IMG/VR virus record: IMGVR_UViG_3300049913_000012
Strand: one strand, 5' to 3'
Origin: an uncultured virus (IMG/VR IMGVR_UViG_3300049913_000012)
Taxonomy: Duplodnaviria; Heunggongvirae; Uroviricota; Caudoviricetes
Length of the DNA stretch: 64,000 nucleotides
Shown here: positions 214 through 29,161 of the stretch, one piece after another
Layout: each line of letters starts with the position of its first letter
Numbering within the stretch: the stretch's first letter is position 1
The notes under the pieces: model-generated
What the model saw: the letters and a program-made list of their open reading frames with translations, nothing else
Database searches by the model: none
Told to the model about the DNA's origin: nothing
Position numbers and translations under genes: made by a program

Positions 214-221
214 ATTGCCTC

Positions 222-1224: not shown

Positions 1225-1225
1225 A

Positions 1226-1920: not shown

Positions 1921-1939
1921 GAAATACGTGTGTTACTGA

Positions 1940-3958: not shown

Positions 3959-3991
3959 TACCTTGCTCCTTTTATAGAACGGTGTATATGT

Positions 3992-4162: not shown

Positions 4163-4421
4163 TTATCTCACCTCCTTTCGGGTATAGGATAGGGGAGGGG
4201 GTAGGGGGCCTCCCCTCCCCCCGCCTCCCCTTGAGTATGTCCAAGGGTCTAGAATAAATTATTTATATACCCCCATGTTCACTTTCTCTCTCTCTCATCC
4301 CCCTTCAGTATCTAAATACACATCGGCATGTTATAAGAGCTCGAAATGGCTTACATTGTTGTATAATAGTAGATGCCCCTAGATGTAAACGTAGATTAGA
4401 TAATATAGGAAGGAGAATCGC

Positions 4422-4628
4422 ATGACTGTTCCCGCTGGTAGAGTTACGCAGGAGAGCAATCCTGATGTTTGGCAAGGTTTATATAATCAATGGTTGGAAG
4501 AGCGTAAACCTGGATGGGTAACACGAAGATCAGGTGCTGATTCCTGGCTTGTGGTGCAACTCGTTGATGGCTCCATCGCCTTTGACCCACAGACCAATAA
4601 GAACCTCTATGAAGACACTAGTTTCTAA
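4422..4628 (+). CDS. Hypothetical protein, first gene of the rightward operon
   Basis: AAGGAG RBS; TATAAT about 60 nt upstream. Confidence 0.55.
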   Translation: MTVPAGRVTQESNPDVWQGLYNQWLEERKPGWVTRRSGADSWLVVQLVDGSIAFDPQTNKNLYEDTSF

Positions 4629-4872
4629 AGATAGGAGCAGTGTCTTTTTCAAGACTAAAGATCAAGAAGAAACCATTATGCTCATCTCTTATAGGTTAGA
4701 GATAGCACAGACCGAAAGAGTGGGAAGACGTGTCATTTTCTTCTTTGATCGGGAGAGAGCCACTCCATACATGAATATGTGGAAATCCAATACACCCATG
4801 CCAGTATCCGATATACGTGACGTGCTTCGGGCTTATCGACTATTCAATCAGGTTGTACACGGAGAGGTATAG
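4609..4872 (+). CDS. Small phage protein upstream of terminase (DUF5659-like)
   Basis: ATG 4609; L..YRL.I...ERVGRRVIFFF pattern; position before TerL. Confidence 0.5.
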   Translation: MKTLVSKDRSSVFFKTKDQEETIMLISYRLEIAQTERVGRRVIFFFDRERATPYMNMWKSNTPMPVSDIRDVLRAYRLFNQVVHGEV

Positions 4873-4877
4873 ATATA

Positions 4878-6623
4878 GTGTCAGGGAAACCGATCTATGA
4901 ATTGTCGGAATTTGAAATTTCATTGCTTAAGTCTGGTATCGAGGATCCCGATGCGATAACAGATTACTTCTTTCGCCAGAAGGGGGCAAAGAATGGCTGG
5001 AAATTAGACGAGAACTTTGATCCAGAAGGTAAGTGGCAAAGAAACGTTCATCGTGCTTCCCAAAAACGAATTGTCGTCATTGGTGGCTTTGGTTCTGGTA
5101 AGACAAAAGGTATAGCTCTTAGTGCCTGTGTGTGGGCTTTGTTGACTAAAGACTTTACCTTCATGAATTGTGCTCCTGCATCCTGGCAGTCTGAGCTCAT
5201 GTACAAATTCGTCACAGAAACCCTAGCCAGGGATACCGTCTTTGAGAAGATGATTTTCTCCAAACCGAAACGTCCTTACCCAATGGTGGATATTCGTTTC
5301 AGAGTTCGAGGACAACTAATTCGGGCTACACTGGAGTTTATGTCGGTTGACAAGAATGCTAAGGCTATTCTGTCCTGGGAAGGTGATTGGGTCAATATTG
5401 ACGAGGCTGGTCTGATTGATGATCTTGGTGGCACAATAATCAATCTTGGTTCTCGCATGCGAGGGCATATCAACGGAAGACCTTTCCTAGGCAGAATGTC
5501 CATGTGCTCAAACTCATGGGATAACCCTGAACTCTGGTATCGTTATGACTTAGCTCACGATCTACCCGATGATTATCTCTCGATGGCGATCTCCAGTCGC
5601 TATAATCACAACATTACTCCAGAACAATTGAAGAACATGCTGAAGGATATTCCAGAAGAAGAGCATGATCGCTTTATAGATGCTGCTAGACCTGAAGGAC
5701 GTGGTAATTACTTTTCTAAGTCTAAGATTTATCTAGCTGAGGATGATGCTTATAGCCAATTCTTACTTGGACATCTTGAGGCTGGCGCTAAGGGTTTTGC
5801 TGCTGAGACGACTTATGGTTGTGGAGTGACCTACTTTGAGATACCCCATGCCGAGTATCATGAATATATGCTCATTGGCGATCCTGGTACTGGCGCTGCA
5901 CCTAATAGAAATGCTCCAGTTCTACAAGTTTGGGACATTCATGAGTTCCCAAAATACAAAGCTACCCTGGTTGCCTTCTTCTGGGGCGATGGAAAAGGCT
6001 CAATTACACCCTTTTATCGCACCTTGTTCCATTTTATGGTCAAATATAACCCTATAGTGACTGCTGTAGATAACACTGGCCCCCAAAAGAACACTTCCGA
6101 GATACTAAATAACTATATTTTGGCTTCTCGTATGGATAAAGACAAGATGTTTGAGTTTTTAGGCGAGAAAATCGACCTTTCTAGCGTCTATAATCCTGTA
6201 ATTCAGGGAATGGACTTCTCAGGAGGCAAGAAACCAGCCTATCTAATCGCTGGAAGGCTCATGTTAGAGGCTCAACTCTTCTCATGGCCTAAAATCATCA
6301 CAGGAATGAGGTCGCAACTGAGTAACTATGATCCTGACAAAGATTCTGGCAACGGCACGAAGATTCCTCAAGACCTTGTGGCAGCATATTGCATGTCGGG
6401 TTATGCTGTTCAAGTTTGGTTTCATATCGACCCTAGTCGGTTGGTACAGAAGCCAGAAGAAAAAGATGTTCAGAAAGCTGAAGAACTATTCGGAAGAGCA
6501 GTTAGATCACCTGTGGTTGCAAGAGAACAAAGGAATAGTGGTCGATCCCCATCGACCCATCCTAAGAAATATAAACAGGAACAACCGCAGCCTATCAGCG
6601 AGGCCAAAGAAGACAATATTTGA
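4878..6623 (+). CDS. terL: Terminase large subunit
   Basis: Walker A GGFGSGKT, Walker B WVNIDEAG, C-terminal RNase H-like nuclease acidic residues (IGDPG, VDNTG, QDLV). Confidence 0.92.
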   Translation: MSGKPIYELSEFEISLLKSGIEDPDAITDYFFRQKGAKNGWKLDENFDPEGKWQRNVHRASQKRIVVIGGFGSGKTKGIALSACVWALLTKDFTFMNCAPASWQSELMYKFVTETLARDTVFEKMIFSKPKRPYPMVDIRFRVRGQLIRATLEFMSVDKNAKAILSWEGDWVNIDEAGLIDDLGGTIINLGSRMRGHINGRPFLGRMSMCSNSWDNPELWYRYDLAHDLPDDYLSMAISSRYNHNITPEQLKNMLKDIPEEEHDRFIDAARPEGRGNYFSKSKIYLAEDDAYSQFLLGHLEAGAKGFAAETTYGCGVTYFEIPHAEYHEYMLIGDPGTGAAPNRNAPVLQVWDIHEFPKYKATLVAFFWGDGKGSITPFYRTLFHFMVKYNPIVTAVDNTGPQKNTSEILNNYILASRMDKDKMFEFLGEKIDLSSVYNPVIQGMDFSGGKKPAYLIAGRLMLEAQLFSWPKIITGMRSQLSNYDPDKDSGNGTKIPQDLVAAYCMSGYAVQVWFHIDPSRLVQKPEEKDVQKAEELFGRAVRSPVVAREQRNSGRSPSTHPKKYKQEQPQPISEAKEDNI

Positions 6624-13265: not shown

Positions 13266-13709
13266 ATGCCTATTAGATTAGATGTTCCTTTGGAAAAAGA
13301 GTACACCCTGGAAAAGTCAGATAAAGTCTTTGGTGTTGCAGCAGCCGAGTCTACACGAGTCACCATTCGTCAGGCGACTCAGGGTGAGCATGAACGTAGA
13401 GCAGCCTTATTCTCTCAGGTCATCAGAGAAATGGCGAGAGATTCCTCACAGGAAGATGTAGTGAGGCTGATCCAGCGCTTTAGTTTTGAAGAATTGAAGC
13501 GCATTGAGGTTCAGTTGACCATGAAGTCTTGTAATATTCTGGGTGCTGATGGTAAACTGCTGTTCAAATTCAACGCTGATGGTAGAATCAGTGAAGATAA
13601 GTTCAGGGACGCCTGGGATGTCTTGCCTCCATCGGTAGCGACAGAAATCCATGATTGCGTGCTTGAACTAAATGTAGATTGGCAACCCCAATTGGGGGAA
13701 GGCGACTAA
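13266..13709 (+). CDS. Tail assembly chaperone (gpG-like)
   Basis: Upstream of the tape measure gene; ends at slippery GGGGGAA (13694-13700). Confidence 0.75.
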   Translation: MPIRLDVPLEKEYTLEKSDKVFGVAAAESTRVTIRQATQGEHERRAALFSQVIREMARDSSQEDVVRLIQRFSFEELKRIEVQLTMKSCNILGADGKLLFKFNADGRISEDKFRDAWDVLPPSVATEIHDCVLELNVDWQPQLGEGD

Positions 13710-14002
13710 GGGAGGTTTTAGAGAGCCTTCAGAATAAATTAGCTGACTACTTTGGGATGCTCAACCAAATAAGGGCTGAGCTAAAGGTAGCGCCAGAAGA
13801 TCGTCATGAAAAACCTGACGAGCTAAAGAAGTACGAACAGATGAAGGCATTAGGTCTGCCTGTATGGGCTGGTGGTGTACAAGACCAGCCTCACATCTGG
13901 CTTGAGATGATAGGCATTATAGAGAACACCCTAAAGGTCTTCAATCTCGTGCCAAGTACTTCGGCGCAACCAAAGGAAGGTCAGCATGCCCCCGACAACT
14001 AG
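13694..14002 (+). CDS. Tail assembly chaperone -1 frameshift extension (gpGT-like)
   Basis: Overlapping ORF in the -1 frame across GGGGGAA; LPVWAGGVQDQPHIW motif. Confidence 0.7.
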   Translation, partial: GGRRLREVLESLQNKLADYFGMLNQIRAELKVAPEDRHEKPDELKKYEQMKALGLPVWAGGVQDQPHIWLEMIGIIENTLKVFNLVPSTSAQPKEGQHAPDN

Positions 14003-17000
14003 TAGGTATCTAGTTCCTTACGACCCAACTGGTCAAAGCCAGGAGATAGGGATGACTTCACTCGTCCAGAGACTGAACGATGAGCTCAGGAACGAGGGTT
14101 ATACCTTTGCTGTTGACGAAAGAGCAAAACTTGAAAATGGTTTCTTTCGTGTCAATGTGTCTAAGGGTGGTGGTTTATCTTTGGGGGAGTACAACTTATA
14201 TCTCGACCTTCGTTTAGGATTACTTAGTCCTAGGGGACAAGTTATCGAGATGGCGTCATCTACGATGGCAAATTTTGGCATGCCTGGATTTGCACGTCAT
14301 ATCCCTGCTCAAAATCAGATTTCCAGTACTGTCGATACCTTCAAAGACTATGTACGCTCGATCTACGACTTTGCTTTAGCAGAGGGTAAACAGCCAAGAG
14401 AAGTAGCTTGGACAGTCTACCAGAAGGGTTATGAGCCACGTAATTATCCAGCCTCTGAAACAGTTGGTATAGAGTCGTATGAAACTCCCATGACCCCTGC
14501 TGCTGGTGGTGTTATCACCCGTAGTTCTAGTAGTGGTCAGAGAGCACTTATGGCTTCTACAGTGCGATGGGTTGTGCCTTTTGGGACAGAACCAAAAGAC
14601 TATGTAAACAAAACGATGGAGAGAGGTAACGCTGCTGAACCTCTTGGAATGCCAGGATATGGCCCCAACTTGAAGATGAGTGGTTGGACACCAATGGGGA
14701 CACAGATGTACACAGCACGTCCTCAATTCGCTGGTGGAGAACAAACATTTGTAAAACTACCTCGTGGTTTGGTCGGTTCTTTCAAGAGTATGACTTCTAC
14801 CTTTGGTGCTCGAAATTTAGCTGATGTACCCTTGGTGCGTGATCCATCGACAGGTAGATATATCAAGGTAAAACCAAGTCAAGCTACTCAGGGTGCTGGC
14901 TATCGTACAGGCTGGACTCAATCGACAATGGTTCTTCCTACTGAGACAGAGCCAAGAACAGTATTCTCTGCCTCTGTGGGCATGATCGACCAACCTGATA
15001 TGCCTGGAGCTATGTTCCAGTCAAAAGGTGCTTTTGACTTCTTTGACCAGAGTATAAGCAACAAAGGCATAGTACAAAAGCAACGTACTGCTGCTATTGG
15101 CGAGAGTGGTGACATTACCTATGAGTTTGGTGTCAAGACCGCAGAAGAGCTCGGAAAGATCGTACAGAGTGGCCTAGAGTTTCTTGACATTGAAGGAAAG
15201 CAAATGCGTCCTGGTAGGGGCATGCAGACAATTGCTCGCTATCAACCTGAAGGCGCAGACAAGTATAAAAACTTATTCATCGAAAAACGTTCCTATCCTG
15301 TTGTCCTGCATAAACCCACACTTCATATCCCTCAGTATTATGAAGTTACTCCTGGTGGAGAAATGTTTTCCAATCTTCCTGTTTACGACCAGGAAGGTAC
15401 GACTTTGCTAACCACTGACAACATTATCTCTGATCTGAAGGCCAAGTATGGAGATAATGTCAATATTGTTCAGTACAGTGCAATAGGTTCAAGAGGTGAA
15501 GCAAATCCTGCTGCTGTATATCTGACTATTCCTATGGAGCGTGTCAATCCCGTAGGAGCTAAGAGTGATGCTTTCAAAGCCTATCCAGCCCCCAAGGATT
15601 ACCAATTCAAGCTACGTTATCTTGGAAGTGAAGAGCATGAGACTCCTGTTGACTTTGTGACCCAGGAAGGCAAGATTCCTCCTCGTGCTATCATGCAGTC
15701 TGTCGGTATTATGAATAAGGAAGCTGCTGTAGAGTTTATGGGATTATTCTTACCACAGGGCAATGATCTTGAAACTCAGGCAGTCAAGAAGATACAAGAG
15801 TACATCGGGGAACAATTTACTAAGCCAAAAGTCACATTAGAGTCAAGAAGCATGGCTACGATCTGGAATCAGATTACAGGACAGACTCTTTCTCCTGACG
15901 AACTATTTGGCAGGATGGGAGAAAGGATCGGGGCTATAACAGATAGTGTCCAGGCTGTAGACATGGCAAATAAGTTTGGCTTACGTATTCCTGTCAAACA
16001 GATGGCATTCGGGGGTGTTTATTCCGAAAGCTCCATGAATCAATTGAAAGAAATCTTTGGGGAGTTCGGGCCTGAAGCGCAGTCGTTGCTCCGTTTTGAG
16101 CCATACAAAGCTCCAGGTAAAGACACAGCTATGGCAGAAGCTCTCAAGGGGAGTATAAGTGCCGATCTTTATTCCATGTATTATCAGGTTCCTGGTGGGG
16201 CTGCTAAGAATATAACCTTGCAGACAGGACTCTCGTTTGTGTCTGAGTACACATCACAGTCTGGATATGTCAACGCTAAAGGTATTATGTCACTTATCCA
16301 GAACTACCCCAAGATCGCCTTTGCGATGGGGCTTGCAGATCGACAAGGTAACTGGAAAGGCGTCTTTTCCTCCAAGGCTTATAGTGAGGGACAACCTGAA
16401 CCTAGCGTAGCTGCTGCTCAGGTTCTAAAACCATACCTTGAATTTCAGCAGAAACTATTCAATAGTGATAATGTCAACTTCTCTCTGCCAGCAAAGCATA
16501 TTGCCCTTGATGCTGATATGGCAGCCGATATGCTTTCTATCATTGGGTCTGCTAAACAGCAACCTACCGATCAGGCACAACTAGAAGCCCTAAAACACGA
16601 TCTAGGAGAACTCAATCCTAAGGTCTATGGTCTAGAGAAACGGACTTCATTCACAGACTCATTCTTTTATGATCCCAATACGGGAACAATTGCTCCGAGT
16701 GTCGAATCTATTATCGGGACTGAGACTTATGAGAAAGGTGTTCAGGAAGGGCAGACAGTCAAGTATTTAGGCAAGAACTATATGAATCTGCTTGAGTCAA
16801 TGGCTAGGTCTGCAATGTCCGAGCCAGGAGCAATGCAGAATGTAGTCGGCCCTGTTAGAGAATCATTTTTCAGGAAGATCAATAAGATGGTCTATCCTGG
16901 TGGCAGACGTTCTAAGGAGTTTGCACGTAATATCGTTGGTATGAATCTCCCTGGTACTCGTGGTGGACGTTATCAGGGTATGACTGAGCTAGAGTCTGGT

Positions 17001-20000
17001 AATGCCTATGCCTCAGATGAATATATCATTCGTATGCTCTCGAATGGTGGCTTTATGAAGGCAGGGCAGATCAGTAGTATTTTGAGATACCTAAATGGTA
17101 AACCAGAAGCCTATTTACCGATTCTGTCTCAACGTTTCCCTGATGTAGGTGGCGAGACAATGTTCATGCCACTCAAGTTACGCTCAGCGAAGCATCTAAA
17201 GGCACTCGGCGTACCAATCCCAGAAGGCCCAACAGCCAATGATCTGATGTTCATGTCTACCAACGTCAACCGATTCCAAGTTGGTGACTTTGACGCCGAT
17301 CCTGCTAAGCAAAAAGTTCTTCCTATGAACCGCCTGTTCGACCCTAAAAGTAAACAGTGGACAGACGAGTGGTACATGAGTGGTGATCTTACTGGTGAGT
17401 TTGAGAGTAAATTCAAGGAATACTACGGAACTAGTGCTGCCATTGGACAGAAGATGGAGGAATTATTCGGCATTCATGGTACATCTGCTGGTGGCAATCT
17501 AGGCAAGTCATCAGAGAGTCTAGATGTTGCTAGAAAGAATGCTGCTGATTACATTACAGCAGTGTTGGGCGAATCAACCAGTTATCAATCTCGCATGCGA
17601 GAAAGTGGGGGTTTCTTAGCTAAGGACGCTCAGGAACAGCAAATGAATGTCATGCACATGAAAAGTGGCATGGGACTATCCTACATCATGCGTACTGAGC
17701 TCACCGATATTGCTTCTGCGGTTTTGGGTATGTCTGGCAGAGACACAGGCATTTTCAAGAGAGCCTACGAGAGCAGTGGCCTAACCTACCAGATGTATCT
17801 TGATAGATGGCAAAATATGAAGGGTGGCTTTACTGCTGTAGAAACCCTGATGAATACTTATGGTATCTATGGTATTGACGAAGCTCAGGGAGTAAGCAAT
17901 TACAGGGTAAGTTATAAACTCACAGAGCAAGGTCTACCAGTCGATGTTGATAGAAAGAATTGGAGTACTGGCGGTGGCGCTGGAATGGAAGCGTCCAGTG
18001 GTTTGCTGCGCCAGTTACTACATGTGGTTGGCAATATGCCAAAAGACATCATGACAGATGAAATGCTGGCATGGCTTGTCTCTGGCACAGGTGGTGCAGG
18101 AAAGGTACTTACCGCCCTAAAGAATCCTGCTGACTTCTGGAAAGCAGGGGGAATGGAGAGTACATGGTCTAAAGAAGCCATTGGGAATCGAGCTAATATT
18201 GTCAAGGAAATGACGAAGACTGGTGAGGTTGGTTTCAACTCTCCTCTGTACATGGGACTTACCTATAAGGCTATTCAGAGAGCAGCTAGAGACTTCCCAG
18301 GTTATATACAAAACCGAGATATTGTTCTTCCCTGGCTAGACGGAAAGATGATGCCTGTTTCAGACATCATGCAGACACCCGAATATAGGTTATGGGGTGT
18401 GGCTGAGAATATGTTTGTCAGGGGTAGCAAGGCAATTGATCCGAAAGATATGCAGCTTCTAGAAAATATTGGAGGCCCACGTCTAGCAGGAGAAATGGCT
18501 GGTATCTACTCTTCTTGGAAACAGGCTACAGGTGGTATCTATCCTGTCGAGCAAGCTGAGTTAGAGTATGGCGCAAGACAAAAGAAGGCTTACCAGATAT
18601 TCGGTGAGACTGCCATAAAGAATACACCTGTTGTCCACGCCAGTGAACTTGGTGCATTGCTTGGCTTGCCAAATCAGCTTAGAGCACAAGGATGGCTTGA
18701 GACAGGTGGGCCTGAAAAGATAGAAGCTCAGTATCATGCGGTTCTAAGTGCCTTGGGTGCTCCACAGTTGATGTCAAGCAGAGACTATCCAGGTACACAA
18801 TTCCTAACTACAGCAAAGATCATGGCTGGTGAGTCTATTATAGGTGGTACTGAGTATGAAGCAGCTTATGCAAGATCGCACCCAGGGCTAACTCACGTTG
18901 GCAGTGTAGACCCCAATGCTTCTCTGAAGTATCGCCTAGGTGGTCTGGAAATTCGGGGTGTACCTGACTTTATTAGTCTTGAGAATGGCAAGTTTGTTAT
19001 TCGTGATACTAAGAGTCCTGCTGAGAGAGAGGGCATTCAATATACTGCTGGCTTTGCTGAAACAATGGCAAAGAAATATCGCTATCGTATCCAGCAGATG
19101 GCTTATGCCTACGGTCTTGAGAAGATGGCGAAGGATACAGGCTTTTCAGATCCTCAGTGGATAAGCTTCATGAAGAACTGGCATCTCGACAATCCTGATA
19201 CTGCGCTAACGATGAGACAAGCTGCTGCTGCTGGTAACTTCAAGCTTCTGATCGCTCCAGGGCGTTATGTCTCTGGACTAACACCAGATGTATTCAAAGA
19301 GATTGAGGTTCCTTATGGAAACACAGAGAAACTAGAACTTGAAACCCTGGCTGCATCAGCTAAGGAGCAATTATTCCAGCCTAAGGTTGTAGGTAGGGTC
19401 GCTTCTAATATCTATACAGCACTAGCCAAAGGCACTACGCTAACTGATCTTCCAAGTTACACTCGCTCTGGACAACCTGTCGATATGGAAATGTACGATC
19501 TGTTCAGAAAAACTGCTGAACAGACTGGCTTCCCAATCGAAGGGGCAAGGATGTCTGGCGGTGGACGTATTGATAGTAAGCTCAATAGGATAGTCCGTGT
19601 AGGCGAAGGTGGCCCTGAAGACATCATTCTTAGCAATAATGAAGTCACTGTTGTTCCAACAAGTGATATACCTAACCGCACTATGAGTCAATATAGGCAG
19701 GGTGGTGGTCTGGCTTATAGTGATGAAATATATCGTAGGAAGAAAGCTGAGCGAGAACTTAGAAAACTACAGCAACAGATGGGTGTCCCCATAGCCACTG
19801 GCAATGAAGATTTAGGTCTTCTGGGTCGATTAGTCCCTAGTGAAACTGCAACAGAGCCAGTGATCCCTGCTCCTGTCCAGCCTGGGACAAATATCATTAG
19901 TGAAGAGTACCTATCCAGACTAGAAGCAATCTCAGGTACATTTGGAACGTCAGCCAGCACTCTCCAAGCAATTCAAGAGGGTGGGGGCATGACAATGAGA

Positions 20001-23000
20001 ATACAAGGCAAGGCTAACCCTCCTAACCAGGAGAAAATAGCTCGCCAGATCGAAGCTGGTCTAACACAGTTCACTGGTCGTGGATTTATTGAGAAGTTCC
20101 AGACTGAAGTTAGCAATAGGATGATAGGCCTCTTCAAGCAACAAGGTAAATATGAGCAGTTTGTTGAGGGAAAAGGTTACGAAGGTGCAATCAACGCCAA
20201 CAAACTCATCAACTTAGCCTATCAAGCTGAAATACCTGAAGAGGAAATACTTGGTACTTTTGCTGACAAGCAGTTTCAAGCTAGGGCGAGTAGAGTGTTT
20301 AGAGGTGGCAAGGGTATTGAAAGTTTGCTAGGAATGGTGCAGAAGACTCCTGGTGGCATTGGCGGTCTACTTGCAACGCAAGGACTCAATCCACTCATGC
20401 AGACAACACTAGAACACTTACAGTCTTACATGGGTGATACAGGAGAAACAGAGAGAGCCAAGATAAGAGAAGCTACTGAAGCTGCTCAGTACATCACAGG
20501 TAATAAGGCTGGTGTCACTGATATTCGCAAGAGTCCCCTTTATGGTGTCTCTGAAGATACAATAAAAGCCTACAACGACTCTATGAGAAACCTAACTTCA
20601 AAGCAATTGGAGTTAGCTCGTACTACTGAGGGAACTAAAGATCATCATATTGCTTATCAGAAAGCTATTGAAGCAGGTCGAGTAGCTACTACTACAGCAG
20701 CCGAGGCCAGCATCGAGAGACACAAAGCTCTTTCGGGACTCTATACCCGCAAGGGCGAGCTAATGACTGAAGCACAGATGACCAGGGCTGGTATTGAGCC
20801 TACTTCTGAGCAAATTGGGGAAATTGGACAAGTAAAACTAGCTCAAGGAGCATACGCTAGAGCACTAAGAGAAGAAGGGCGTCCTGTACCTACGGTTGAG
20901 GGTGGCCCTGCTACCAGACTAGGCGCTATGTCTAGGCGCTTACTTGGTGGTTTTGGTCTGATGTATCTGCGATCCATCGGTGGCCTGATGACGACAGGCG
21001 CATATACTGGTCTAAATGAGCGCATGGCTTATGAGCAACAGATGGGTCAGCAGTTCTTGGGTGTTGGTGGTCAGATGCCAGTTACTCCAATGGAAGAGCA
21101 ACAACGTATTCTAGCTACGCAGTATGGTGGTAGTGGTGGTCTGATGATGCAGACGACCAGAAATATGATAATGGCACAGCAACAACCAGCTTATCAATTA
21201 GCCACTACAGGTTTGGCTGGTATCTCTGCTGGTGGTATGGCAATGTGGTTAGGAGAAGGACTAGGATGGTCGGAGGCTAAGGCTGGAAGGGCAGGGCTTG
21301 TCATAGGTGGTATCACGATGGCAGCTAATACAGCCCTGAATATAGCTGGTGCTGCTCAGGATGTCCAAGGCACTTCAATGAACCTTGCAATAAGAAGGGC
21401 AAGGGGAGAGAACTTTGCTGGCACTGCTGCTGTATCAGGTATTACTGGTCTGGCAACTGGTGCAGCACTTGGAGCAGCCATTGGGAATGTACCTGGGGCG
21501 ATTATAGGTGGAATAGCTGGCGGTGCTCTTGGTTTAGCATCTAATTATCAGAATATCGCTGCTATATTCAATCCTGAGATAGGAAAACAGGCTGAGCTAC
21601 TTACCGCAATAGCTGGTCGTGGCACTACTCCAATAAGTGAGGTTATACAGCAATATGGTATAGCTCCAGATCAGACTGCTTACTATGCTCGTTTGGCTGC
21701 TGAGATCGAAGGCGCACAGAAAAAGAATCTTGGAATTACTCCTGAGGCTTGGGGTGCAGCCTCAGCCTTTGAGCTTAGGCAGAACATCTCTCTTGGAGAT
21801 CAGGCACGTAGACAATTTGCTCAGATGACACAAGCTGGCTTCAATCCAGAGGCTTTTGCAGTAGCAGCTACACAGGCACTTGGTATGCCTATTACACAGG
21901 CTCGTGGTGTCACTGGTAGCTGGATGGGTGGCCCTGCACTTGGACTAACAAGGCCTACAGTTTCCACAACTGGCCCTACTACAGCACAACAGGCATTTGT
22001 GGCTAATCAGATCGCTACTGGAGGCATTGCTGGTGTTGGGCCTCAAATCTTGAATAATATGGTACAGAACCAGACTGCTCAAGCTAATTGGGCTGAGGCA
22101 ACCATCTCTGGTTATAGACTTCCACAGCCGACTCAGCAGAATATTACTCTATCTCCTGAACAAATTGCTCAATTCAAGCAGAATGCAGCGACTTATACTG
22201 CCCTTGGCTCTACACAACCTACCAATATAGCAGCAACCAATCCAGAACTTGCTTCACGTCTAGCAGGGACAGGAAATGTTGCTCCTATTATGCAGTTTGT
22301 GAAGACAATTCAAGACTGGACAGCTACTATGGCTGCTTCTGGTGTTACCGAGGACGTATCCAAGGAAAGACTTACCGCAGCTTGGCAAGCGCTTGGTGCT
22401 TTTGGTGCTATGGGTGCTGCTGGCGCTCGTCAGGCGATGGGGCCTGTAGGCGCTGGTGGAATAACATCAGGACAGTTTCAGAAACTAGTCGATTACTCAG
22501 AGAAGCTTGCAGCAATGCAAGCCACTGGATGGGCGCAGACTTATCAGTCGAAAGAGCAACTACGTGCTACACAGCTTGCTCTTGGAATGACACCAATCGC
22601 TGCACCTAATCTTGAGGACTACGCCAACAGGATAGCTGATCCTATCAAGCAGATGGCAGAGCAAATACAAGATCAACTCAATGAGATTCCTGCCAATATG
22701 AAGCTACAGGCGCAGAAACAAGCTACTGCTGCTTTTGGGTTTATTCCCACTATGGCTGCTACTACGCCTATGGGTTTCAATCAATATACATCTCAGGTAC
22801 AGGCTGGACAGGCATTAGGTCAACAGTTCATGATGGGTGGTCTGAATGAGCAGGCTGCATCTCAACTTGGTGGTGCTTTCGCTGCTATGCCTGCACAAGT
22901 ATATGGTCGCTATCAAGGTCTATTCAGTGGTAATGCACTTCAGATGGCTGGTTTTGCGATGGAAAGACCGAACACCATTATGAACCTAATGCGCTTAGGT

Positions 23001-24632
23001 GGTACGAGTATTACTGGTCAGCCTCTGGGTGCAGGGATGCTTCCAGGTATTGGTGGCTCTACTCTCAATATGGCTAACCTTGGTTTGACTGGCATCGGTG
23101 TCAATCCAATAACAGGTATGGTTGCTCCAACTGGTCAAGGTTATGGCGAGACGACTTATGCTCGTCCTTTTGAGGTAGCTGCACTTACTGCTGGTGGTAT
23201 GGCTCCTGGGGCTGCTATGCAACAATCGGCAGCTAATGTTATTAATGGATGGTTCAATAGTGCGACTGCTACTGCTGCTAATAGACAATTCAATGCTAAT
23301 GGAGTAGCTTGGCAAAACAATCCTAACTTTAGCCAGGGCTATATTGGTGCTTTACTCACTGGTGGTCAACAAGGTGGTCAGGCCTATCAACAAGCGCAGA
23401 GTGCTCAGTATCAGCTTGCACAGGCTGGTATTGGTATTGCTCAGCTTCAACTTCAGGCTCAGTATCAACCTCAGTTCTGGGCGCTAGAGGATCGTACTAG
23501 ACAACTAGGATACCGCCAGCAAGAATGGGGTTTCCAGCAACAGGGACAACAGTTAGCTTTAGGCGAACAGAATTTCCAGTTCCAGACTGGAATGCAACAG
23601 CGCCAGATGACTATGCAACGTGGCTGGCAACAGCAAGATTGGGCTTATCAGGCTCAGACCAGAGGTCTACAGTGGCAGTGGCAAACTGAGGACTTCCAAG
23701 AGAATGTACGTTTCATGACTGGACGTGAGAGACGTTTAGCTGAGCGCCAGATGGGTCGTGCTACTACTCTACACGATCTTGAGGGTGAACAGATAGACAA
23801 ACAGAAAGATAGACAAAAGCAATTATGGATGATGGAAGATGAGCGCTTCAATCAACAGGTAGGTTATCAGGAAGAGCTCTTCAAGATGCAAGAGGATAAC
23901 CTCAATAAGCAAAAAGAGTTCTTTGAGGAACGCAAGACACTAGAGCAAGAACAAGTAGACCTAAACCGAGAGTACTGGCAGAAGCAACATGACCTCTCGA
24001 TGTCTGCTGCTGGTGCTGCCTCTAAGTACGCAACAGAACAGGTTGGCATTGCTAATGCTATGTTGGTCGCTTCTCAGAATCAACAGGCCATGATTGGTGA
24101 AGGTGGTCTATTCAACAGTGATACCTGGAAGTCTCTTGGTATAGATTTGGCTACAGTTGATCCACTATTCGCAAGTTACGTAGAGAATATAGGTGTGCTC
24201 CAGCCTTTATTTGCAGACTTTGTTGTTTCTGTCAAAGAGTTAATCAGTACTTTAGGTGGTACTCCCTGGAATGCTCCTGCTACTGGTGCGGGTGGTGGTG
24301 CTAACGACCCAACAGTACAATGTCCTCTCTGCAATCAGTCGATGCCAGCTTCTCAGCTAAATGACCACATGGCAACAGTGCATCATAGGGCGACAGGTGG
24401 GCGTACACTGCCAGGAATTGACTATATTATTGGTGAGCGTGGAATAGAAGTCTTCCGTCCAGACTCAGCAGGGACAGTCAAGCCTCTCGATCCTTGGGGT
24501 ACTACTTTTACTTCTAATACTTCCTCTGGCGCTGATGGTAAGCCTGGAACAGTTCACTTGGTTGTCTACCTAGGTGACGAGAGATTGATTGATCGTGTAC
24601 TTGAGCAAGTAGATCAGGAGATTAGAGTATGA
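13986..24632 (+). CDS. Giant tape-measure protein fused to two-barrel RNA polymerase-like and PD-(D/E)xK nuclease domains
   Basis: TMP slot; Ala/Gly/Gln-rich helical C-half with hydrophobic segments and C-terminal ATGG...GERGIE motif; N-half has VGAK..FK..ETPVDFV, QRFP...GDFDAD and GVPD..IRDTK..QQMAY. Confidence 0.8.
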   Translation: MPPTTSRYLVPYDPTGQSQEIGMTSLVQRLNDELRNEGYTFAVDERAKLENGFFRVNVSKGGGLSLGEYNLYLDLRLGLLSPRGQVIEMASSTMANFGMPGFARHIPAQNQISSTVDTFKDYVRSIYDFALAEGKQPREVAWTVYQKGYEPRNYPASETVGIESYETPMTPAAGGVITRSSSSGQRALMASTVRWVVPFGTEPKDYVNKTMERGNAAEPLGMPGYGPNLKMSGWTPMGTQMYTARPQFAGGEQTFVKLPRGLVGSFKSMTSTFGARNLADVPLVRDPSTGRYIKVKPSQATQGAGYRTGWTQSTMVLPTETEPRTVFSASVGMIDQPDMPGAMFQSKGAFDFFDQSISNKGIVQKQRTAAIGESGDITYEFGVKTAEELGKIVQSGLEFLDIEGKQMRPGRGMQTIARYQPEGADKYKNLFIEKRSYPVVLHKPTLHIPQYYEVTPGGEMFSNLPVYDQEGTTLLTTDNIISDLKAKYGDNVNIVQYSAIGSRGEANPAAVYLTIPMERVNPVGAKSDAFKAYPAPKDYQFKLRYLGSEEHETPVDFVTQEGKIPPRAIMQSVGIMNKEAAVEFMGLFLPQGNDLETQAVKKIQEYIGEQFTKPKVTLESRSMATIWNQITGQTLSPDELFGRMGERIGAITDSVQAVDMANKFGLRIPVKQMAFGGVYSESSMNQLKEIFGEFGPEAQSLLRFEPYKAPGKDTAMAEALKGSISADLYSMYYQVPGGAAKNITLQTGLSFVSEYTSQSGYVNAKGIMSLIQNYPKIAFAMGLADRQGNWKGVFSSKAYSEGQPEPSVAAAQVLKPYLEFQQKLFNSDNVNFSLPAKHIALDADMAADMLSIIGSAKQQPTDQAQLEALKHDLGELNPKVYGLEKRTSFTDSFFYDPNTGTIAPSVESIIGTETYEKGVQEGQTVKYLGKNYMNLLESMARSAMSEPGAMQNVVGPVRESFFRKINKMVYPGGRRSKEFARNIVGMNLPGTRGGRYQGMTELESGNAYASDEYIIRMLSNGGFMKAGQISSILRYLNGKPEAYLPILSQRFPDVGGETMFMPLKLRSAKHLKALGVPIPEGPTANDLMFMSTNVNRFQVGDFDADPAKQKVLPMNRLFDPKSKQWTDEWYMSGDLTGEFESKFKEYYGTSAAIGQKMEELFGIHGTSAGGNLGKSSESLDVARKNAADYITAVLGESTSYQSRMRESGGFLAKDAQEQQMNVMHMKSGMGLSYIMRTELTDIASAVLGMSGRDTGIFKRAYESSGLTYQMYLDRWQNMKGGFTAVETLMNTYGIYGIDEAQGVSNYRVSYKLTEQGLPVDVDRKNWSTGGGAGMEASSGLLRQLLHVVGNMPKDIMTDEMLAWLVSGTGGAGKVLTALKNPADFWKAGGMESTWSKEAIGNRANIVKEMTKTGEVGFNSPLYMGLTYKAIQRAARDFPGYIQNRDIVLPWLDGKMMPVSDIMQTPEYRLWGVAENMFVRGSKAIDPKDMQLLENIGGPRLAGEMAGIYSSWKQATGGIYPVEQAELEYGARQKKAYQIFGETAIKNTPVVHASELGALLGLPNQLRAQGWLETGGPEKIEAQYHAVLSALGAPQLMSSRDYPGTQFLTTAKIMAGESIIGGTEYEAAYARSHPGLTHVGSVDPNASLKYRLGGLEIRGVPDFISLENGKFVIRDTKSPAEREGIQYTAGFAETMAKKYRYRIQQMAYAYGLEKMAKDTGFSDPQWISFMKNWHLDNPDTALTMRQAAAAGNFKLLIAPGRYVSGLTPDVFKEIEVPYGNTEKLELETLAASAKEQLFQPKVVGRVASNIYTALAKGTTLTDLPSYTRSGQPVDMEMYDLFRKTAEQTGFPIEGARMSGGGRIDSKLNRIVRVGEGGPEDIILSNNEVTVVPTSDIPNRTMSQYRQGGGLAYSDEIYRRKKAERELRKLQQQMGVPIATGNEDLGLLGRLVPSETATEPVIPAPVQPGTNIISEEYLSRLEAISGTFGTSASTLQAIQEGGGMTMRIQGKANPPNQEKIARQIEAGLTQFTGRGFIEKFQTEVSNRMIGLFKQQGKYEQFVEGKGYEGAINANKLINLAYQAEIPEEEILGTFADKQFQARASRVFRGGKGIESLLGMVQKTPGGIGGLLATQGLNPLMQTTLEHLQSYMGDTGETERAKIREATEAAQYITGNKAGVTDIRKSPLYGVSEDTIKAYNDSMRNLTSKQLELARTTEGTKDHHIAYQKAIEAGRVATTTAAEASIERHKALSGLYTRKGELMTEAQMTRAGIEPTSEQIGEIGQVKLAQGAYARALREEGRPVPTVEGGPATRLGAMSRRLLGGFGLMYLRSIGGLMTTGAYTGLNERMAYEQQMGQQFLGVGGQMPVTPMEEQQRILATQYGGSGGLMMQTTRNMIMAQQQPAYQLATTGLAGISAGGMAMWLGEGLGWSEAKAGRAGLVIGGITMAANTALNIAGAAQDVQGTSMNLAIRRARGENFAGTAAVSGITGLATGAALGAAIGNVPGAIIGGIAGGALGLASNYQNIAAIFNPEIGKQAELLTAIAGRGTTPISEVIQQYGIAPDQTAYYARLAAEIEGAQKKNLGITPEAWGAASAFELRQNISLGDQARRQFAQMTQAGFNPEAFAVAATQALGMPITQARGVTGSWMGGPALGLTRPTVSTTGPTTAQQAFVANQIATGGIAGVGPQILNNMVQNQTAQANWAEATISGYRLPQPTQQNITLSPEQIAQFKQNAATYTALGSTQPTNIAATNPELASRLAGTGNVAPIMQFVKTIQDWTATMAASGVTEDVSKERLTAAWQALGAFGAMGAAGARQAMGPVGAGGITSGQFQKLVDYSEKLAAMQATGWAQTYQSKEQLRATQLALGMTPIAAPNLEDYANRIADPIKQMAEQIQDQLNEIPANMKLQAQKQATAAFGFIPTMAATTPMGFNQYTSQVQAGQALGQQFMMGGLNEQAASQLGGAFAAMPAQVYGRYQGLFSGNALQMAGFAMERPNTIMNLMRLGGTSITGQPLGAGMLPGIGGSTLNMANLGLTGIGVNPITGMVAPTGQGYGETTYARPFEVAALTAGGMAPGAAMQQSAANVINGWFNSATATAANRQFNANGVAWQNNPNFSQGYIGALLTGGQQGGQAYQQAQSAQYQLAQAGIGIAQLQLQAQYQPQFWALEDRTRQLGYRQQEWGFQQQGQQLALGEQNFQFQTGMQQRQMTMQRGWQQQDWAYQAQTRGLQWQWQTEDFQENVRFMTGRERRLAERQMGRATTLHDLEGEQIDKQKDRQKQLWMMEDERFNQQVGYQEELFKMQEDNLNKQKEFFEERKTLEQEQVDLNREYWQKQHDLSMSAAGAASKYATEQVGIANAMLVASQNQQAMIGEGGLFNSDTWKSLGIDLATVDPLFASYVENIGVLQPLFADFVVSVKELISTLGGTPWNAPATGAGGGANDPTVQCPLCNQSMPASQLNDHMATVHHRATGGRTLPGIDYIIGERGIEVFRPDSAGTVKPLDPWGTTFTSNTSSGADGKPGTVHLVVYLGDERLIDRVLEQVDQEIRV

Positions 24633-25039
24633 CCAATCCGTATATAACCCTAACTGACAGTAGTGGCTCTGGTGGGAAGCGTTTCAAGGCGATTGAGTTC
24701 AGACCCCCCATGACACGAGGAGACACGATTGAGTTTACGCTCGGTGGAAAGATTGACAAGCAAGCTGGCCCTGTATTCAATGCTTTTCAGTACACCTTGC
24801 GTATTCCTATCGACACACCAGAAGACTCCAACTATGGATCGTATGAGGATTTCAAGAGACTATACCATTTAGCAAACTCTAACCTGACCCCCTCAGATGT
24901 AATTTCACTAACAGACCACTCAGGCTCAGGACATAATGTATACTTTGTTGGAGATACATCCCCTACCCCACTTACTACAGAACTTGAAGGGGTAAATGCT
25001 TGGTTCATTGTGCCTGTGCAGCTTATGGAGATACCATAA
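24629..25039 (+). CDS. Distal tail (Dit-like) protein
   Basis: Small beta-rich gene immediately after the TMP. Confidence 0.6.
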   Translation: MTNPYITLTDSSGSGGKRFKAIEFRPPMTRGDTIEFTLGGKIDKQAGPVFNAFQYTLRIPIDTPEDSNYGSYEDFKRLYHLANSNLTPSDVISLTDHSGSGHNVYFVGDTSPTPLTTELEGVNAWFIVPVQLMEIP

Positions 25040-28000
25040 ATGGCTCGCTCTCTAGTCGGAACTAATCTTCGTGCTGCCATTGACATCAATGGTAGTTATT
25101 ACATGCTTGCCAGGGCAGATGTATATCCGTCTCGTGTTTACTTTGAGGCAATCACAAGTGATTATCCTCCTGTAGTTGGTGCAGACGCCATTGGCTTGAT
25201 AGCCAATCCCATGAAACAGGATATTGAGTACTCTCCTATTGCCGATGGACTGGTGACTTTCTTTGTTGACTCAGGCCTAAAATGTATGGTGCAGGGCTCC
25301 AATAGTGTAATATCCCTCAGCACTGATTACACGCCAGCAAATGTAAAGCCAGGAGTACTCGACTCTACTTTGTACTATCTTGACACGGAAGGCTACGTGA
25401 ATCGCTGTAGCATCAATTGGACTGGCCCAACGGTATCTGATATTGACTATGTAAGTGTTGGCACTAATGTAATAGCAGTTCATGCAGTTGGCGATGACGA
25501 GTCAGTCGCTATATTAGATGACGAGGGTGGGTTTAGACCTGTTTACATATCTGGTGTTAATTCATATCTATGCCCTACTCGTTTTATGTTTCCATCTACG
25601 GTGATTAGCTCTGGTTCCTCTAGATCAATGGATGAGCTAGGAGAATTGTCTGGTGTAGCACGTCTAGGCAATAAGATATTCGTCTATATAAGTAATTGCT
25701 CGAATGGAAGTGTAGAGGGAATGTACTATGATGTGGATACATCCACATGGAGTGATATTTTTATTGCTCTTCCTACTGATTTAGACACATCCCTCTGTGA
25801 GTTTAGGATCGCCAATGTATACACTCATAATGGCACAATCTATATGTGTGGGCAGTTCGGACGTACAGACTTTCTGAGCTCAGCCAGAATATACTCTCTC
25901 TTGCTGTATTCTGATGATGGGAAGGTCTTTACTGTCGAGCGCAATACACTAGTCAGCGATATAGGTTATCGGTATTTAGCCAGGGTTGGCAATAAGAAAC
26001 TCTATTTGGGTAACTGCAATCGTGTCTGCTCTGCTGATGTGACATGGGTCTTTGATGGCACGAGTGGTTCAGAAGGACGGATGACTGCAATAAGCTCTGA
26101 TGATTTCAAAGCATTCACCGATACAGGTTTGAGCAAATCCACTCTCACTCTCCGCTCAGGACTAGAACAATATTTTGGTCATCTAGATGTCCTTGAAGGT
26201 TCTCGCATGCGAGTTTACGCTGGTATGAAAACATCTGTTGGCGATGAATATGTTCTGTATGGCACATACATCATTGATACTGCTGTCTTCGGGTTAGCCT
26301 CTGGAAAGCGAGATACAGTTGTCAGTGCTACTAATGAAGCTGAGTATAGACTTACTGGCCTTACTATGCCCTTTTATGCAGAGATAGCTGGCAAGTCAAT
26401 GGGTTACTGCCCGATGAAAAAAGACAGTACCATGATGGAGAACGCTGTTGGTGGTTGTCGTACTGAGACTAAATTCTCGCTTGATATGTGGAAACATGAA
26501 GGTTACTCTAGTGGAGCCATTGTTGGCATAGATATACATAGAGGTGGTGGCGTGGACGTTGGTTGGGATACTGCCAATCATAACTATGGGATCATTACCA
26601 ATAGCGAGATAAAGGATATTCTTCTTCTTGAAAGCAATCCCAAGATTACAGGAACATCCATCCATGTACATGCTTATGGATGGTCACATGAGATTGGGGG
26701 CGGTGCTGGCGATCTTGTGAAGTTACTATTGATAGTGGTTGACGAGAACGATGTAGAGACTGTAGTTCTTAGTACTGGAGATCGGTGGAACCAAACATAT
26801 ACTTCTGGCACTAATGGCACTCCTATAGAATTTACTATCGGTGGACTTACTGTCGGTCACAGAATCAAGAAGGCTGGACTTACTTTTGAAGGTACAGCAT
26901 GGTTCTGTCCTGCTCGCCTTGATTTTATTAGTGGTACTGAGGCATATTTCTCATGGTCTGACGCTAATACCCCTTGGACTCAATTGGATAGCGGAGATCG
27001 CAAACTACCTCGTCCTGGTAGACCATATATTGACTTCGCCCAGAAACCCTATAACTCATTCAATTTCTCCCTAGCTGCATCTTTCTCTAATAGTGTTGTA
27101 GGAGCCTTCTCAGGCTTTCCTGTGGCTGCTGGACTAGTAGGGCATGCCGAGAATGGAGCAAACTATACTGTAGGACGCTATAACAAAGCCAACAACAAGG
27201 TAGAGTTAGTTTTGTGTAGGGATGGTAAGGAGACTACCCTACAGAGTAATGATCCTCCATTTCCGATCCAAGATATGTACGAAATGCGTTTCGATCACAG
27301 GAATGGACGCTTCGAGGTATTCATGTTCAACACCTCTGGCTCTTTCTTCCAGAGTGCTCTCACTTATGAATGGAGAGAAGCTGATGGCTATATGTTCACT
27401 AGCCGACTAGCGTCTATGCAGTGCGGTATCTATGGTTGTATCATGTCGCCCTATGTTCCTATTCTTGGATACTATTCTGGCGAAAGTGACAATGCCATCA
27501 ATGCTGATGGCCTGCCGATAGCACCGCTATATGACTTAGATGACTTCCCAACAAGTGGCTCACTTAGGCTGACAGATGATATTTATTCCTATGAGTCTAA
27601 GATCGTCATGGCAAACCCTATTGGGCCTTATCAACTACGTAATAAAGATGTTGGTACTGGTGAAGCGTATATGCCTCCCTTGGGGATAGGGAAACCTGGA
27701 CTTGAGTGTCGTGCTTTTGACTGGACAGCAGACCCTAGTTCGTGTAATGACTATCTCATTGCCATGAACGATGGTTCTAACTTTATATGTATAGCTGCCT
27801 TGTGGCAAGTTTATATAACCACTGGTGGCTCTCCAGTAGTACTCCCAAATCGTGCTCGTTTCTACTCTGAGAATATACAGATAGGAAAACTCTATCATAC
27901 TCTGGCTACTAAGGTCTGGATAACTGGTGGGTTCAAGAACGTAAATCTACTGACTGGCAAGAATACCAGGATAGGACACTCAGAGGGAGAAGTGGTTTAC

Positions 28001-29161
28001 TATGCTCTATCGGGAGAAATAAAGTGTCAGTGGTATATGGGGTCTGGTGGTGAAGATGACACTACAATTGGAGACATGATACAGAAAATCTGCGATCTGT
28101 CTGGGGCAAGATGCTCGTTCCCTAGCGATATTACCATTCCTTCACTTGGGCTCACCTCTGGTAGTTTTGGAGTATCTACTATAGCCTATGCAGAAGGATT
28201 TGATATTAGTTTTGAGAGTGCTGGTTTAGCCACCAATGACGACATAAATATTGCCTTCAATGCCAAGCTAAGGCCTGATAACTACACTTTCAAAAGCGCC
28301 ATTATCAATGACACACAAATCTTGTTGAATATCAATTATCTGGGGAGTGGGAACTTCAGGTACTATCTACTCAGTATGCCATCGGCTACTGTTCTTTATG
28401 CCTGTGACTTTGCATCAGCGTTAGACTATCAGAAGTTTAGGATAAAGTGCCTGATGGATGGAATAGGTATCTACCAAAATGGTCAATGGGTTACTACCAT
28501 AGCTCTTGACAAAGTTGACTATGGAGACAATCTTACACTTTCCCTGAGTTCATATAGTTCTGAGACAGTAAGTAATATATTGATAAGTAACCTAAGTGAC
28601 TGGCGTGAGGCAGTATGGATTGACTTAGAGACAGATGGACGTAGCGCACTTGGCTCGGTTATCCAACAACGTCCCATAGAAATAATTCCACATCCTGATG
28701 GTTCAGTAAGTATTTATTATGAGAAAGTCAGGGATCAAATTATTGCTGTTCGTGAACCTCGTGACCATAAATACCAGCACTCTATTCCAGCAGAGGGTGC
28801 TAGTGACGCTATCGTTTATGGTTACAATGTAAAGACTTTGCAGAACCTCAATTTTGCTAGAGAGCTAGGCTTCTCTACTAAACTTTTTAGGATGCCCGAT
28901 CTAAGTACAGGCGCAGTAAGAGCAGCTAATGTGTTACTACAAAGAGCTCTAGAAGGTGCTCATAGAGATCAACTTACTATCCGACCAGACCTAGCACTTG
29001 TGATTGGCGATGTGTATGTTGTAATCTATACAGCTTCGGGTACAGGAAGAATAGAAAGTCACATAATTATCTTGGAAAGTATCTCTCTGGAGGCAAGAAT
29101 GTCTGGCCCAAAATCGTCTAGTCGTATGGCGATTACAGGAAGAGAGGTCTACGTTGAATAG
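25040..29161 (+). CDS. Tail tip / baseplate hub (Tal-like) large protein
   Basis: 1373 aa after Dit; YGTYIID and C-terminal PDLALVIGDVY hub-like motifs. Confidence 0.6.
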   Translation: MARSLVGTNLRAAIDINGSYYMLARADVYPSRVYFEAITSDYPPVVGADAIGLIANPMKQDIEYSPIADGLVTFFVDSGLKCMVQGSNSVISLSTDYTPANVKPGVLDSTLYYLDTEGYVNRCSINWTGPTVSDIDYVSVGTNVIAVHAVGDDESVAILDDEGGFRPVYISGVNSYLCPTRFMFPSTVISSGSSRSMDELGELSGVARLGNKIFVYISNCSNGSVEGMYYDVDTSTWSDIFIALPTDLDTSLCEFRIANVYTHNGTIYMCGQFGRTDFLSSARIYSLLLYSDDGKVFTVERNTLVSDIGYRYLARVGNKKLYLGNCNRVCSADVTWVFDGTSGSEGRMTAISSDDFKAFTDTGLSKSTLTLRSGLEQYFGHLDVLEGSRMRVYAGMKTSVGDEYVLYGTYIIDTAVFGLASGKRDTVVSATNEAEYRLTGLTMPFYAEIAGKSMGYCPMKKDSTMMENAVGGCRTETKFSLDMWKHEGYSSGAIVGIDIHRGGGVDVGWDTANHNYGIITNSEIKDILLLESNPKITGTSIHVHAYGWSHEIGGGAGDLVKLLLIVVDENDVETVVLSTGDRWNQTYTSGTNGTPIEFTIGGLTVGHRIKKAGLTFEGTAWFCPARLDFISGTEAYFSWSDANTPWTQLDSGDRKLPRPGRPYIDFAQKPYNSFNFSLAASFSNSVVGAFSGFPVAAGLVGHAENGANYTVGRYNKANNKVELVLCRDGKETTLQSNDPPFPIQDMYEMRFDHRNGRFEVFMFNTSGSFFQSALTYEWREADGYMFTSRLASMQCGIYGCIMSPYVPILGYYSGESDNAINADGLPIAPLYDLDDFPTSGSLRLTDDIYSYESKIVMANPIGPYQLRNKDVGTGEAYMPPLGIGKPGLECRAFDWTADPSSCNDYLIAMNDGSNFICIAALWQVYITTGGSPVVLPNRARFYSENIQIGKLYHTLATKVWITGGFKNVNLLTGKNTRIGHSEGEVVYYALSGEIKCQWYMGSGGEDDTTIGDMIQKICDLSGARCSFPSDITIPSLGLTSGSFGVSTIAYAEGFDISFESAGLATNDDINIAFNAKLRPDNYTFKSAIINDTQILLNINYLGSGNFRYYLLSMPSATVLYACDFASALDYQKFRIKCLMDGIGIYQNGQWVTTIALDKVDYGDNLTLSLSSYSSETVSNILISNLSDWREAVWIDLETDGRSALGSVIQQRPIEIIPHPDGSVSIYYEKVRDQIIAVREPRDHKYQHSIPAEGASDAIVYGYNVKTLQNLNFARELGFSTKLFRMPDLSTGAVRAANVLLQRALEGAHRDQLTIRPDLALVIGDVYVVIYTASGTGRIESHIIILESISLEARMSGPKSSSRMAITGREVYVE

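Follow-up and report, generated by a model that had tools for sequence, protein, structure and literature searches.

An uncultured tailed phage probably carries a single-chain RNA polymerase and a predicted nuclease on its tape-measure protein

The window analysed here comprises the first 64,000 nucleotides (nt) of the 74,270-nt virus record IMGVR_UViG_3300049913_000012, which may itself be incomplete. It contains an open reading frame (ORF) of 3548 amino acids (aa), in the following called the giant ORF, the product of which is probably a tape-measure protein (TMP, or ruler) with an RNA polymerase at its N-terminus. The giant ORF is part of a virion module on the + strand, in which terminase, portal, major head, adaptor and tail tube proteins were identified by Pfam or PHROG matches. 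The tail tube gene is followed by two overlapping small ORFs, the giant ORF, an ORF of 136 aa and an ORF of 1373 aa. The features of this region are:

13266..14002, + strand: tail assembly chaperone pair of the G/GT type, i.e. ORFs 13266-13709 and 13679-14002, with a -1 frame overlap
13986..24632, + strand: polyprotein of 3548 aa and 385 kDa with predicted RNA polymerase, nuclease, cut motif, tape measure and C-terminal peptide
15096..15551, + strand: beta-flap-like domain, aa 371-522
15549..15686, + strand: beta-side barrel motif with K526, K531 and E561-x-K563, compared with E. coli beta 1050-1110 and SPbeta YonO
17133..17300, + strand: beta'-side barrel with R1050-x-P1052 and the presumed catalytic D1101-x-D1103-x-D1105, invariant in an alignment of 20 sequences
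17667..17804, + strand: probable bridge helix (GMGxxYN, aa 1228-1236) and trigger-loop helix (YQxxLD, aa 1268-1273), conserved
18618..19430, + strand: cysteine-free PD-(D/E)xK nuclease domain, aa 1545-1815, all motifs present
19548..19658, + strand: internal TMP cut motif R-x-x-G-G...V-G-E-G-G-P-E...V-P, aa 1855-1891, predicted cut after R1855
19551..24389, + strand: tape measure proper, aa 1856-3468, rich in Ala, Gly and Gln
24387..24470, + strand: C-terminal TMP cut motif starting with R3468 (81 residues from the end), matching annotated TMPs of cultured phages
24629..29161, + strand: 136-aa ORF and 1373-aa ORF in the distal-tail and tail-hub positions (by position only)

The slippery sequence GGGGGAA (13694-13700) lies within the overlap of the two chaperone ORFs. 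Among 32 family loci, a count that includes near-duplicate contigs, GGGGGAA was found 220-335 nt upstream of the giant frame in 20, and CCCTTTG in seven more. Downstream, an ORF of ~1000-1550 aa begins ~400 nt past the giant ORF in all 13 loci (of 20) that are sufficiently long. The giant ORF occupies the slot of a siphophage TMP, i.e. it follows the tail tube and the frameshifted G/GT chaperones and precedes the tail-tip positions. A previous reading of this DNA from the sequence alone had placed it in the TMP slot after frameshifted chaperones, and the gene order and the slippery site bear this out. The same reading had the giant ORF precede the distal tail protein gene (Dit); the order is correct, and the labels Dit and hub reflect position, as neither the 136-aa nor the 1373-aa ORF had a Pfam or PHROG family match.

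The N-terminal half of the giant ORF contains the characteristic motifs of two-barrel RNA polymerases. A lysine region (aa 522-567) similar to the beta subunit is followed by R1050-F-P1052 and GDFDAD (aa 1100-1105, nt 17283-17300), which are similar to beta'. Both of the stretches that had been quoted in the sequence-only reading are present in the ORF, in the beta-then-beta' order that it had described, and GDFDAD is the sole DxDxD in the 3548-aa protein. By eye, aa 522-567 parallels E. coli beta 1062-1106, aa 1045-1105 parallels E. coli beta' 420-464, and T-x-E-x-K, GMGxxYN, and YQxxLD parallel SPbeta YonO. From their order and their likeness to YonO, GMGxxYN and YQxxLD are probably the bridge helix and the trigger-loop helix, respectively.

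Seven close relatives share 36-41% identity with the 3548-aa protein. Two peptide patterns derived from their C-terminal halves, i.e. from outside the polymerase part, were used to fetch IMG/VR loci. All 20 loci obtained, two of which (L001 and L002) are near-identical, contain an ORF of 2881-3717 aa with a DxDxD at aa 1014-1483 and an R-x-P upstream of it; the motif is G-DxDxD in 19 cases and I-DxDxD in one. In shuffled proteins, G-DxDxD occurs within aa 900-1600 in 0.46% of cases on average. The presence of DxDxD in 20 of 20 loci that were picked by patterns of the other half thus shows that the polymerase motifs are not due to chance. In an alignment of the 20 sequences (14-42% identity), only K531, R1050, P1052, D1101, D1103, and D1105 are invariant.

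When 1.84 billion representatives were searched with a profile, 138 clusters were obtained, followed by a sharp drop of the score. The family has at least 111 full-length clusters, and all 111 profile matches of at least 2400 aa have the DxDxD as well as the conserved C-terminal segment of the TMP. Only the fusion is independent evidence in this result, because the search profile itself contains the DxDxD motif. Within 132 aligned cores, which were chosen for possessing DxDxD, K563 is present in 126, K531 in 115, R1050 in 126, and P1052 in 130, while the position of K526 has Lys in 92 and Arg in 14. K526 is the least conserved lysine, which refines the earlier statement that both lysines are kept.

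Profile comparisons with E. coli beta and beta', with YonO, and with gp96, a TMP-fused polymerase of a Thermus phage (see below), were not significant. The best (non-significant) beta' profile alignment paired R1050-x-P with N424-R-A-P of beta'. The polymerase part had no sequence match in PDB, Pfam, PHROGs, cultured phages or plasmids; likewise, no kinship by sequence was found with gp66 of the crAss phage phi14:2, which the family profile did not match in the PDB search. The missing database matches could be taken to mean that the motifs belong to another metal-binding fold or to a dead relic. However, five separate polymerase motifs are conserved in the right order over 750 residues, and dead domains do not keep catalytic residues as their sole invariants, so that this explanation is extremely improbable. 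The N-terminal half is very probably a two-barrel RNA polymerase.

An AlphaFold model of the polymerase part, calculated with an alignment of eight sequences, was poor, with a predicted local distance difference test (pLDDT) value of 49, a predicted template modelling (pTM) score of 0.29, and pLDDT values <50 for the active-site segments. Foldseek retrieved RNA polymerase beta or beta' chains with this model in 42 of 49 rows, including the top 11, the matches being weak but consistent. In the same poor model, aa 371-522 can be superimposed on the beta flap. This segment stops immediately ahead of K526, which corresponds to the position of the flap end relative to K1065 in beta. The nearest named cluster in the ESM Atlas was a viral polymerase of the RdRP family (PF05183, score 0.78), which we regard as a lead only. 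Helical-bundle matches of the model (VIA) were set aside as common arrangements, and a BFVD search with the model was uninformative. The gp96 structures, which have a flat fold lacking a clamp, were not among the fold matches listed for the model, which excludes nothing.

For the C-terminal half, the sequence-only reading had noted a TMP-like character, and several features are in agreement with this. It is rich in Ala, Gly and Gln and ends with a motif of the T5 type, and a search with 40 aa from close to the C-terminus gave 207 phage records, the annotated rows shown being mostly TMPs, including T5-like ones. No Pfam or PHROG tape-measure family matched the 3548-aa protein. The tape-measure part has a weakly hydrophobic stretch near aa 2310-2505, a single window with a mean hydropathy >1.45 (at aa 2481), and a strongly conserved Gln/Trp-rich segment (aa 3120-3345). 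A C2H2 zinc-finger-like stretch (aa 3444-3462, 24315-24380; weak Pfam match) lies directly before the C-terminal cut motif. The corresponding ORF of the locus L008 has a weak match to Hint (intein-like, E 0.0024) close to its C-terminus, where the scanned slice ended. Taking the whole explanation together, we assume with good confidence that the giant ORF encodes the tape measure of a long-tailed phage, and that a single-chain two-barrel RNA polymerase forms the N-terminus of this protein.

Between the polymerase and the tape measure, the sequence-only reading, which was right about the polymerase motifs, overlooked a further domain. At aa 1545-1815, the E...PD...(D/E)xK...QxxxY motifs of PD-(D/E)xK nucleases (PF12705) are intact, the respective residues being S1553-E, G1621..E1625, P1660-D1661, D1674-x-K1676, and Q1703..Y1707. 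PF12705 scores 20 bits on the 3548-aa protein, compared to a gathering cut-off of 22, which is passed by the relatives L003 (22.8) and L031 (23.6); altogether, this family (PDDEXK_1) matched 8 of 23 members scanned. The ESM Atlas matches to the domain at 0.93 are PF12705 clusters, the top PDB match of the domain profile is 3k93, a phage exonuclease, with an alignment that covers all of the motifs (E 0.36), and PHROG exonucleases were matched as well. With an iterated profile, the domain was found at the same slot in 73 of 127 family members. G1621, D1661, and Q1703 are present in all 73 domains, and K1676 in 72 of them. The distribution on the family tree is patchy (19 changes versus a shuffled mean of 37), suggesting repeated loss or divergence beyond detection. 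Cas4 proper was rejected, because aa 1-3440 contain no cysteine and four would be needed for the iron-sulfur cluster.

Directly behind the nuclease, 1690 residues from the protein end, lies the internal motif that starts with R1855. Like the motif at R3468, it corresponds to the motif whose first residue in T5 pb2 is R1127, after which pb2 is cut (PMC10038345). A profile made from C-terminal copies only scored T5 pb2 with 17.7 bits (at 1126-1154) and the internal copy of the 3548-aa protein with 8.8 bits, and it recovered internal copies with >6 bits in 16 of 123 proteins, compared to 0 of 123 shuffled proteins. In total, 17 of the 123 full-length proteins have an internal motif, and one protein, P0040, contains two internal copies. 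In a FastTree phylogeny, which was based on 727 columns of 114 full-length proteins and did not include partial or locus-only ones, the 16 carriers included form a single clade with a support of 1.0, indicating one evolutionary event rather than many.

The sequence-only reading had considered that the polymerase might be cleaved from the tape measure, and the T5-type motif at R1855 lends specific support to this view. Cuts at both sites would result in fragments with computed masses of 204, 173 and 8.6 kDa. In lambda and T5, the ruler is cleaved while the tail is being assembled or afterwards, and the resulting pieces remain in the particle (PMC12617516, PMC10038345); how the lambda ruler is cut is stated to be unknown (PMC12617516).

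Several points weigh against a cut at R1855. The leading Arg is absent in 2 of 17 internal copies and in several C-terminal copies, most family members have no internal motif, and the segment was interpreted in the T5 study as a muralytic metallopeptidase motif (PMC10038345), the His of which is absent here. The scarcity of the internal copy and the muralytic activity assigned to the T5 segment, together with the finding that gp96 is present at full length in virions (PMC10770324), would also fit a polymerase that is real and packaged but stays on the ruler, as gp96 does. In that case, the internal motif would represent a linker, the remnant of a duplicated TMP end, or a small motif acting on peptidoglycan. 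In contrast, R..GG is kept in 15 of 17 internal copies while the flanks diverge, the motif marks the boundary of the modules whether the nuclease is present or not (P0033 has no nuclease, yet the motif directly follows the polymerase), and the His of T5's H-x-x-E is missing from the internal copy. Permanent attachment is thus possible but rather doubtful, and a release of the polymerase-nuclease by a cut at R1855, as predicted from these motifs, is somewhat favoured.

An internal cut would also permit the removal of the polymerase-nuclease in the producing cell, where it could act as a late or non-virion enzyme, while the ruler alone would be packaged. P0057 (1868 aa) and P0058 (2149 aa), short proteins on long contigs, may be unfused forms and are compatible with this possibility. 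However, P0057 has a cluster mate of 3754 aa, the fusion is kept in 111 of 111 full-length matches, most of which lack the internal motif, and the ruler pieces of lambda and T5 do not leave the particle (PMC12617516, PMC10038345), making such a scenario very improbable. Most of the 10 short family matches that were checked look cut by contig ends; P0151 is, like P0057 and P0058, a short family protein on a longer contig and possibly an unfused form. Two shorter distant relatives, L023:4118-11053 (2312 aa) and L066:3185-10807 (2541 aa), have the DxDxD and the conserved C-terminal segment, and no nuclease or cut motif was detected in their giant ORFs.

For release inside the virion, we propose the following course of events. 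The protein would be a late product, which is incorporated into the tail with the aid of the G/GT chaperones, as suggested by the gene slot, the slippery site and the TMP motif. Its N-terminus would adjoin the DNA at the neck, an orientation deduced from DT57C (PMC10713586). Maturation would include a cut after R3468 near the C-terminus, analogous to that of T5 pb2 after R1127, and, in this subclade, an additional cut after R1855, yielding a polymerase-nuclease of ~204 kDa, a ruler of ~173 kDa and a tip peptide of 8.6 kDa. On infection, the ruler would form the envelope channel, and the polymerase would enter just ahead of the DNA and fold. By analogy to gp96, it would transcribe the genes that enter first; these are probably the small genes at 1-4200 and 73100-74270 on the minus strand. 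The host polymerase would then take over at sigma70-like promoters. The nuclease might act as a DNA-end exonuclease on the incoming genome, with end resection serving circularisation or recombination. The motif residues are in place, and we tentatively regard the ends of the incoming genome as its most likely target, the alternative being an attack on host DNA.

Delivery of the polymerase in the virion is highly probable. The data are best read as a tape measure that carries a virion RNA polymerase, as put forward in the sequence-only reading. A published precedent, which had not been named there, is gp96 of phage P23-45.

The genome was also inspected for signals of early transcription. No other polymerase-like ORF with a DxDxD, i.e. 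no second polymerase gene, was found in the possibly incomplete 74,270-nt record. Upstream of the minus-strand genes, no 10-mer (one mismatch allowed) was clearly more frequent than in shuffles (observed maximum of 4 regions, shuffles 3-4), and a sigma70 scan of 1-4900 remained below chance. A sigma70-like promoter (TTGACG, 17 nt, TATACT) precedes ORF 72295-73053 and the replication genes, suggesting that the host enzyme probably takes over early. The missing phage promoter motif, the sigma70-like promoter in the absence of a second polymerase, and the linkage of the nuclease to the polymerase in 73 of 127 members could also be explained if the two-barrel domain were active but mainly pulled the genome in by transcription or made primers, with the nuclease acting on the DNA end. 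This is improbable, however: the flap, the two barrels and the bridge and trigger elements seem to be retained, pre-early genes are transcribed by gp96 (PMC10770324), and a short or structural promoter would escape the k-mer test. For a virion polymerase that transcribes early genes, two minus-strand structures are candidates for a structural promoter or terminator. One is a strong G/C hairpin at 4185-4235, which immediately precedes the ribosome site of the first small gene in leftward orientation; the other is a double hairpin at 1850-1920.

Three family loci are found in genome contigs, all from Anaerolineae assemblies, and one of the relatives, L023, lies on a 32-kb contig of one Anaerolineae assembly. 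One family protein stems from a Leptolinea assembly. Of 401 Anaerolineae genomes, two contain the family, one of which is the centre, and all Anaerolineae occurrences are on small or unanchored contigs. Other members are found in Thorarchaeota assemblies, a conflict that makes a binning error possible, while the GH25 endolysin favours a bacterial host. The host is possibly an Anaerolineae bacterium, although the indications are weak.

The genome has several additional features. A 12-bp palindrome, CTCGCATGCGAG, occurs 11 times genome-wide, mostly inside genes:

CTCGCATGCGAG sites: window positions 462, 5452, 13242, 17590, 26202, 35296, 43120, 45973, 52453; genome positions 64070, 71622; variants at 37931, 70744

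With up to two mismatches, 13 matches were found in the window, compared to 1.4 expected, and the spacing is more even than random (p 0.008). The palindrome is also present in L003, L005, and L026, a T/A variant occurs in L024 and L025, and more distant kin have other palindromes. It looks like a putative genome-wide binding site of the partition or repressor type; no ParB was detected. At 61650-62170, outside clear genes, about six degenerate units of 60-90 nt that share the core CCATAGACCTTACTTTAC form an array. A large sugar-modification cluster (48317-54392 and 58906-61037 on the minus strand, and 35026-36468) encodes a GT9, several GT2 and GT1/4-like glycosyltransferases, as well as methyltransferases, a PIG-L deacetylase, and a hexapeptide acetyltransferase; its targets could be the phage DNA, the virion, or the host surface. 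A match to Tad3, an inhibitor of type I Thoeris, lies at 61037-61339 on the minus strand (E 1.8e-9, above the Pfam cut-off), and a NADAR domain is found at 739-1224.

The closest known system is gp96 of the Thermus phage P23-45 (also of P74-26, G20c, and TSP4), a TMP-fused virion RNA polymerase described by Chaban et al. 2024 (PMC10770324). That phage has a second, non-virion polymerase in addition (PMC10770324). The giant ORF shares with gp96 the single-chain two-barrel polymerase at the N-terminus of a TMP, the beta-then-beta' order, the DxDxD triad, and the gene slot. In contrast, gp96 has a DFDGD at 779 and an M23 peptidase, whereas the giant ORF has a DxDxD with a free middle residue at 1101, no match to M23 peptidases, and, unlike gp96, a probable beta flap, a nuclease and an internal cut motif. 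Profiles of the present family detected neither the nuclease nor the cut motif in gp96, and no similarity was found between the two at the sequence or profile level (hmmsearch -3.1 bits, hhalign probability 0.2%). A search with the gp96 core finds only 10 Thermus phage records, and the gp96 supplements contain no mention of Anaerolineae, Chloroflexi or Leptolinea, although members listed by accession only would be missed. Judged from sequence comparison, the family appears to work like gp96, but it is not a detectable member of the gp96 family.

YonO, the polymerases of the RdRP/QDE-1 type (PF05183), and phi14:2 gp66 have a motif grammar in common with the giant ORF, as judged by eye from YonO: K-G followed by T-x-x-x-x-K on the beta side, and G-x-Y-x-N and a Q/N-x-x-I/L-D helix after the triad. 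However, YonO is a free enzyme of 839 aa, which is not fused to a tail protein and has no significant alignment to the giant ORF. Phage PD-(D/E)xK exonucleases (PF12705; YqaJ/lambda-exonuclease/Cas4-like; 3k93) have all motifs in the same order as the nuclease domain; in contrast to the Cas4-like exonucleases, the domain described here has no cysteines, hence no iron-sulfur staple, and is embedded in a tail protein. T5 pb2 (Linares et al. 2023, PMC10038345) has one copy of the cut motif near its C-terminus and no polymerase, whereas a second copy is found here. Lambda gpH has a looser motif at 733, near the site where a piece of ~14 kDa is removed (PMC12617516), and this motif did not score with the family profile.

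The accessible literature, in which most subscription journals were not covered, contained no paper that deals with the family, with an internal cut motif, or with a nuclease that follows a polymerase fused to a ruler. Polymerase-ruler fusions were described in it for only a few Thermus phages. We regard the chances as evenly balanced that a large uncultured phage family, which appears to be independent of the Thermus lineage, uses its tape measure to deliver an RNA polymerase together with an exonuclease, and that one subclade has duplicated the maturation signal of the ruler and thereby frees the enzyme pair inside the virion. If true, R-x-x-G-G...G-E-x-G-x-E would be a portable, possibly self-cleaving release signal for a cargo of 200 kDa through a phage tail, and the natural internal duplicate of the T5 cut motif would offer a direct test of whether the short motif is sufficient for cutting. 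With more than 100 clusters, the polymerase-ruler fusion would be a common strategy rather than a curiosity. This would bear on how phages send enzymes ahead of their own DNA, and on the question of the gp96 paper of how a polymerase of folded size is packed into, and passes through, the tail tube. In comparison with the known systems, the principle of the polymerase on the ruler has already been established with P23-45 gp96, and the present family adds a predicted PD-(D/E)xK nuclease and an internal cut motif to it.

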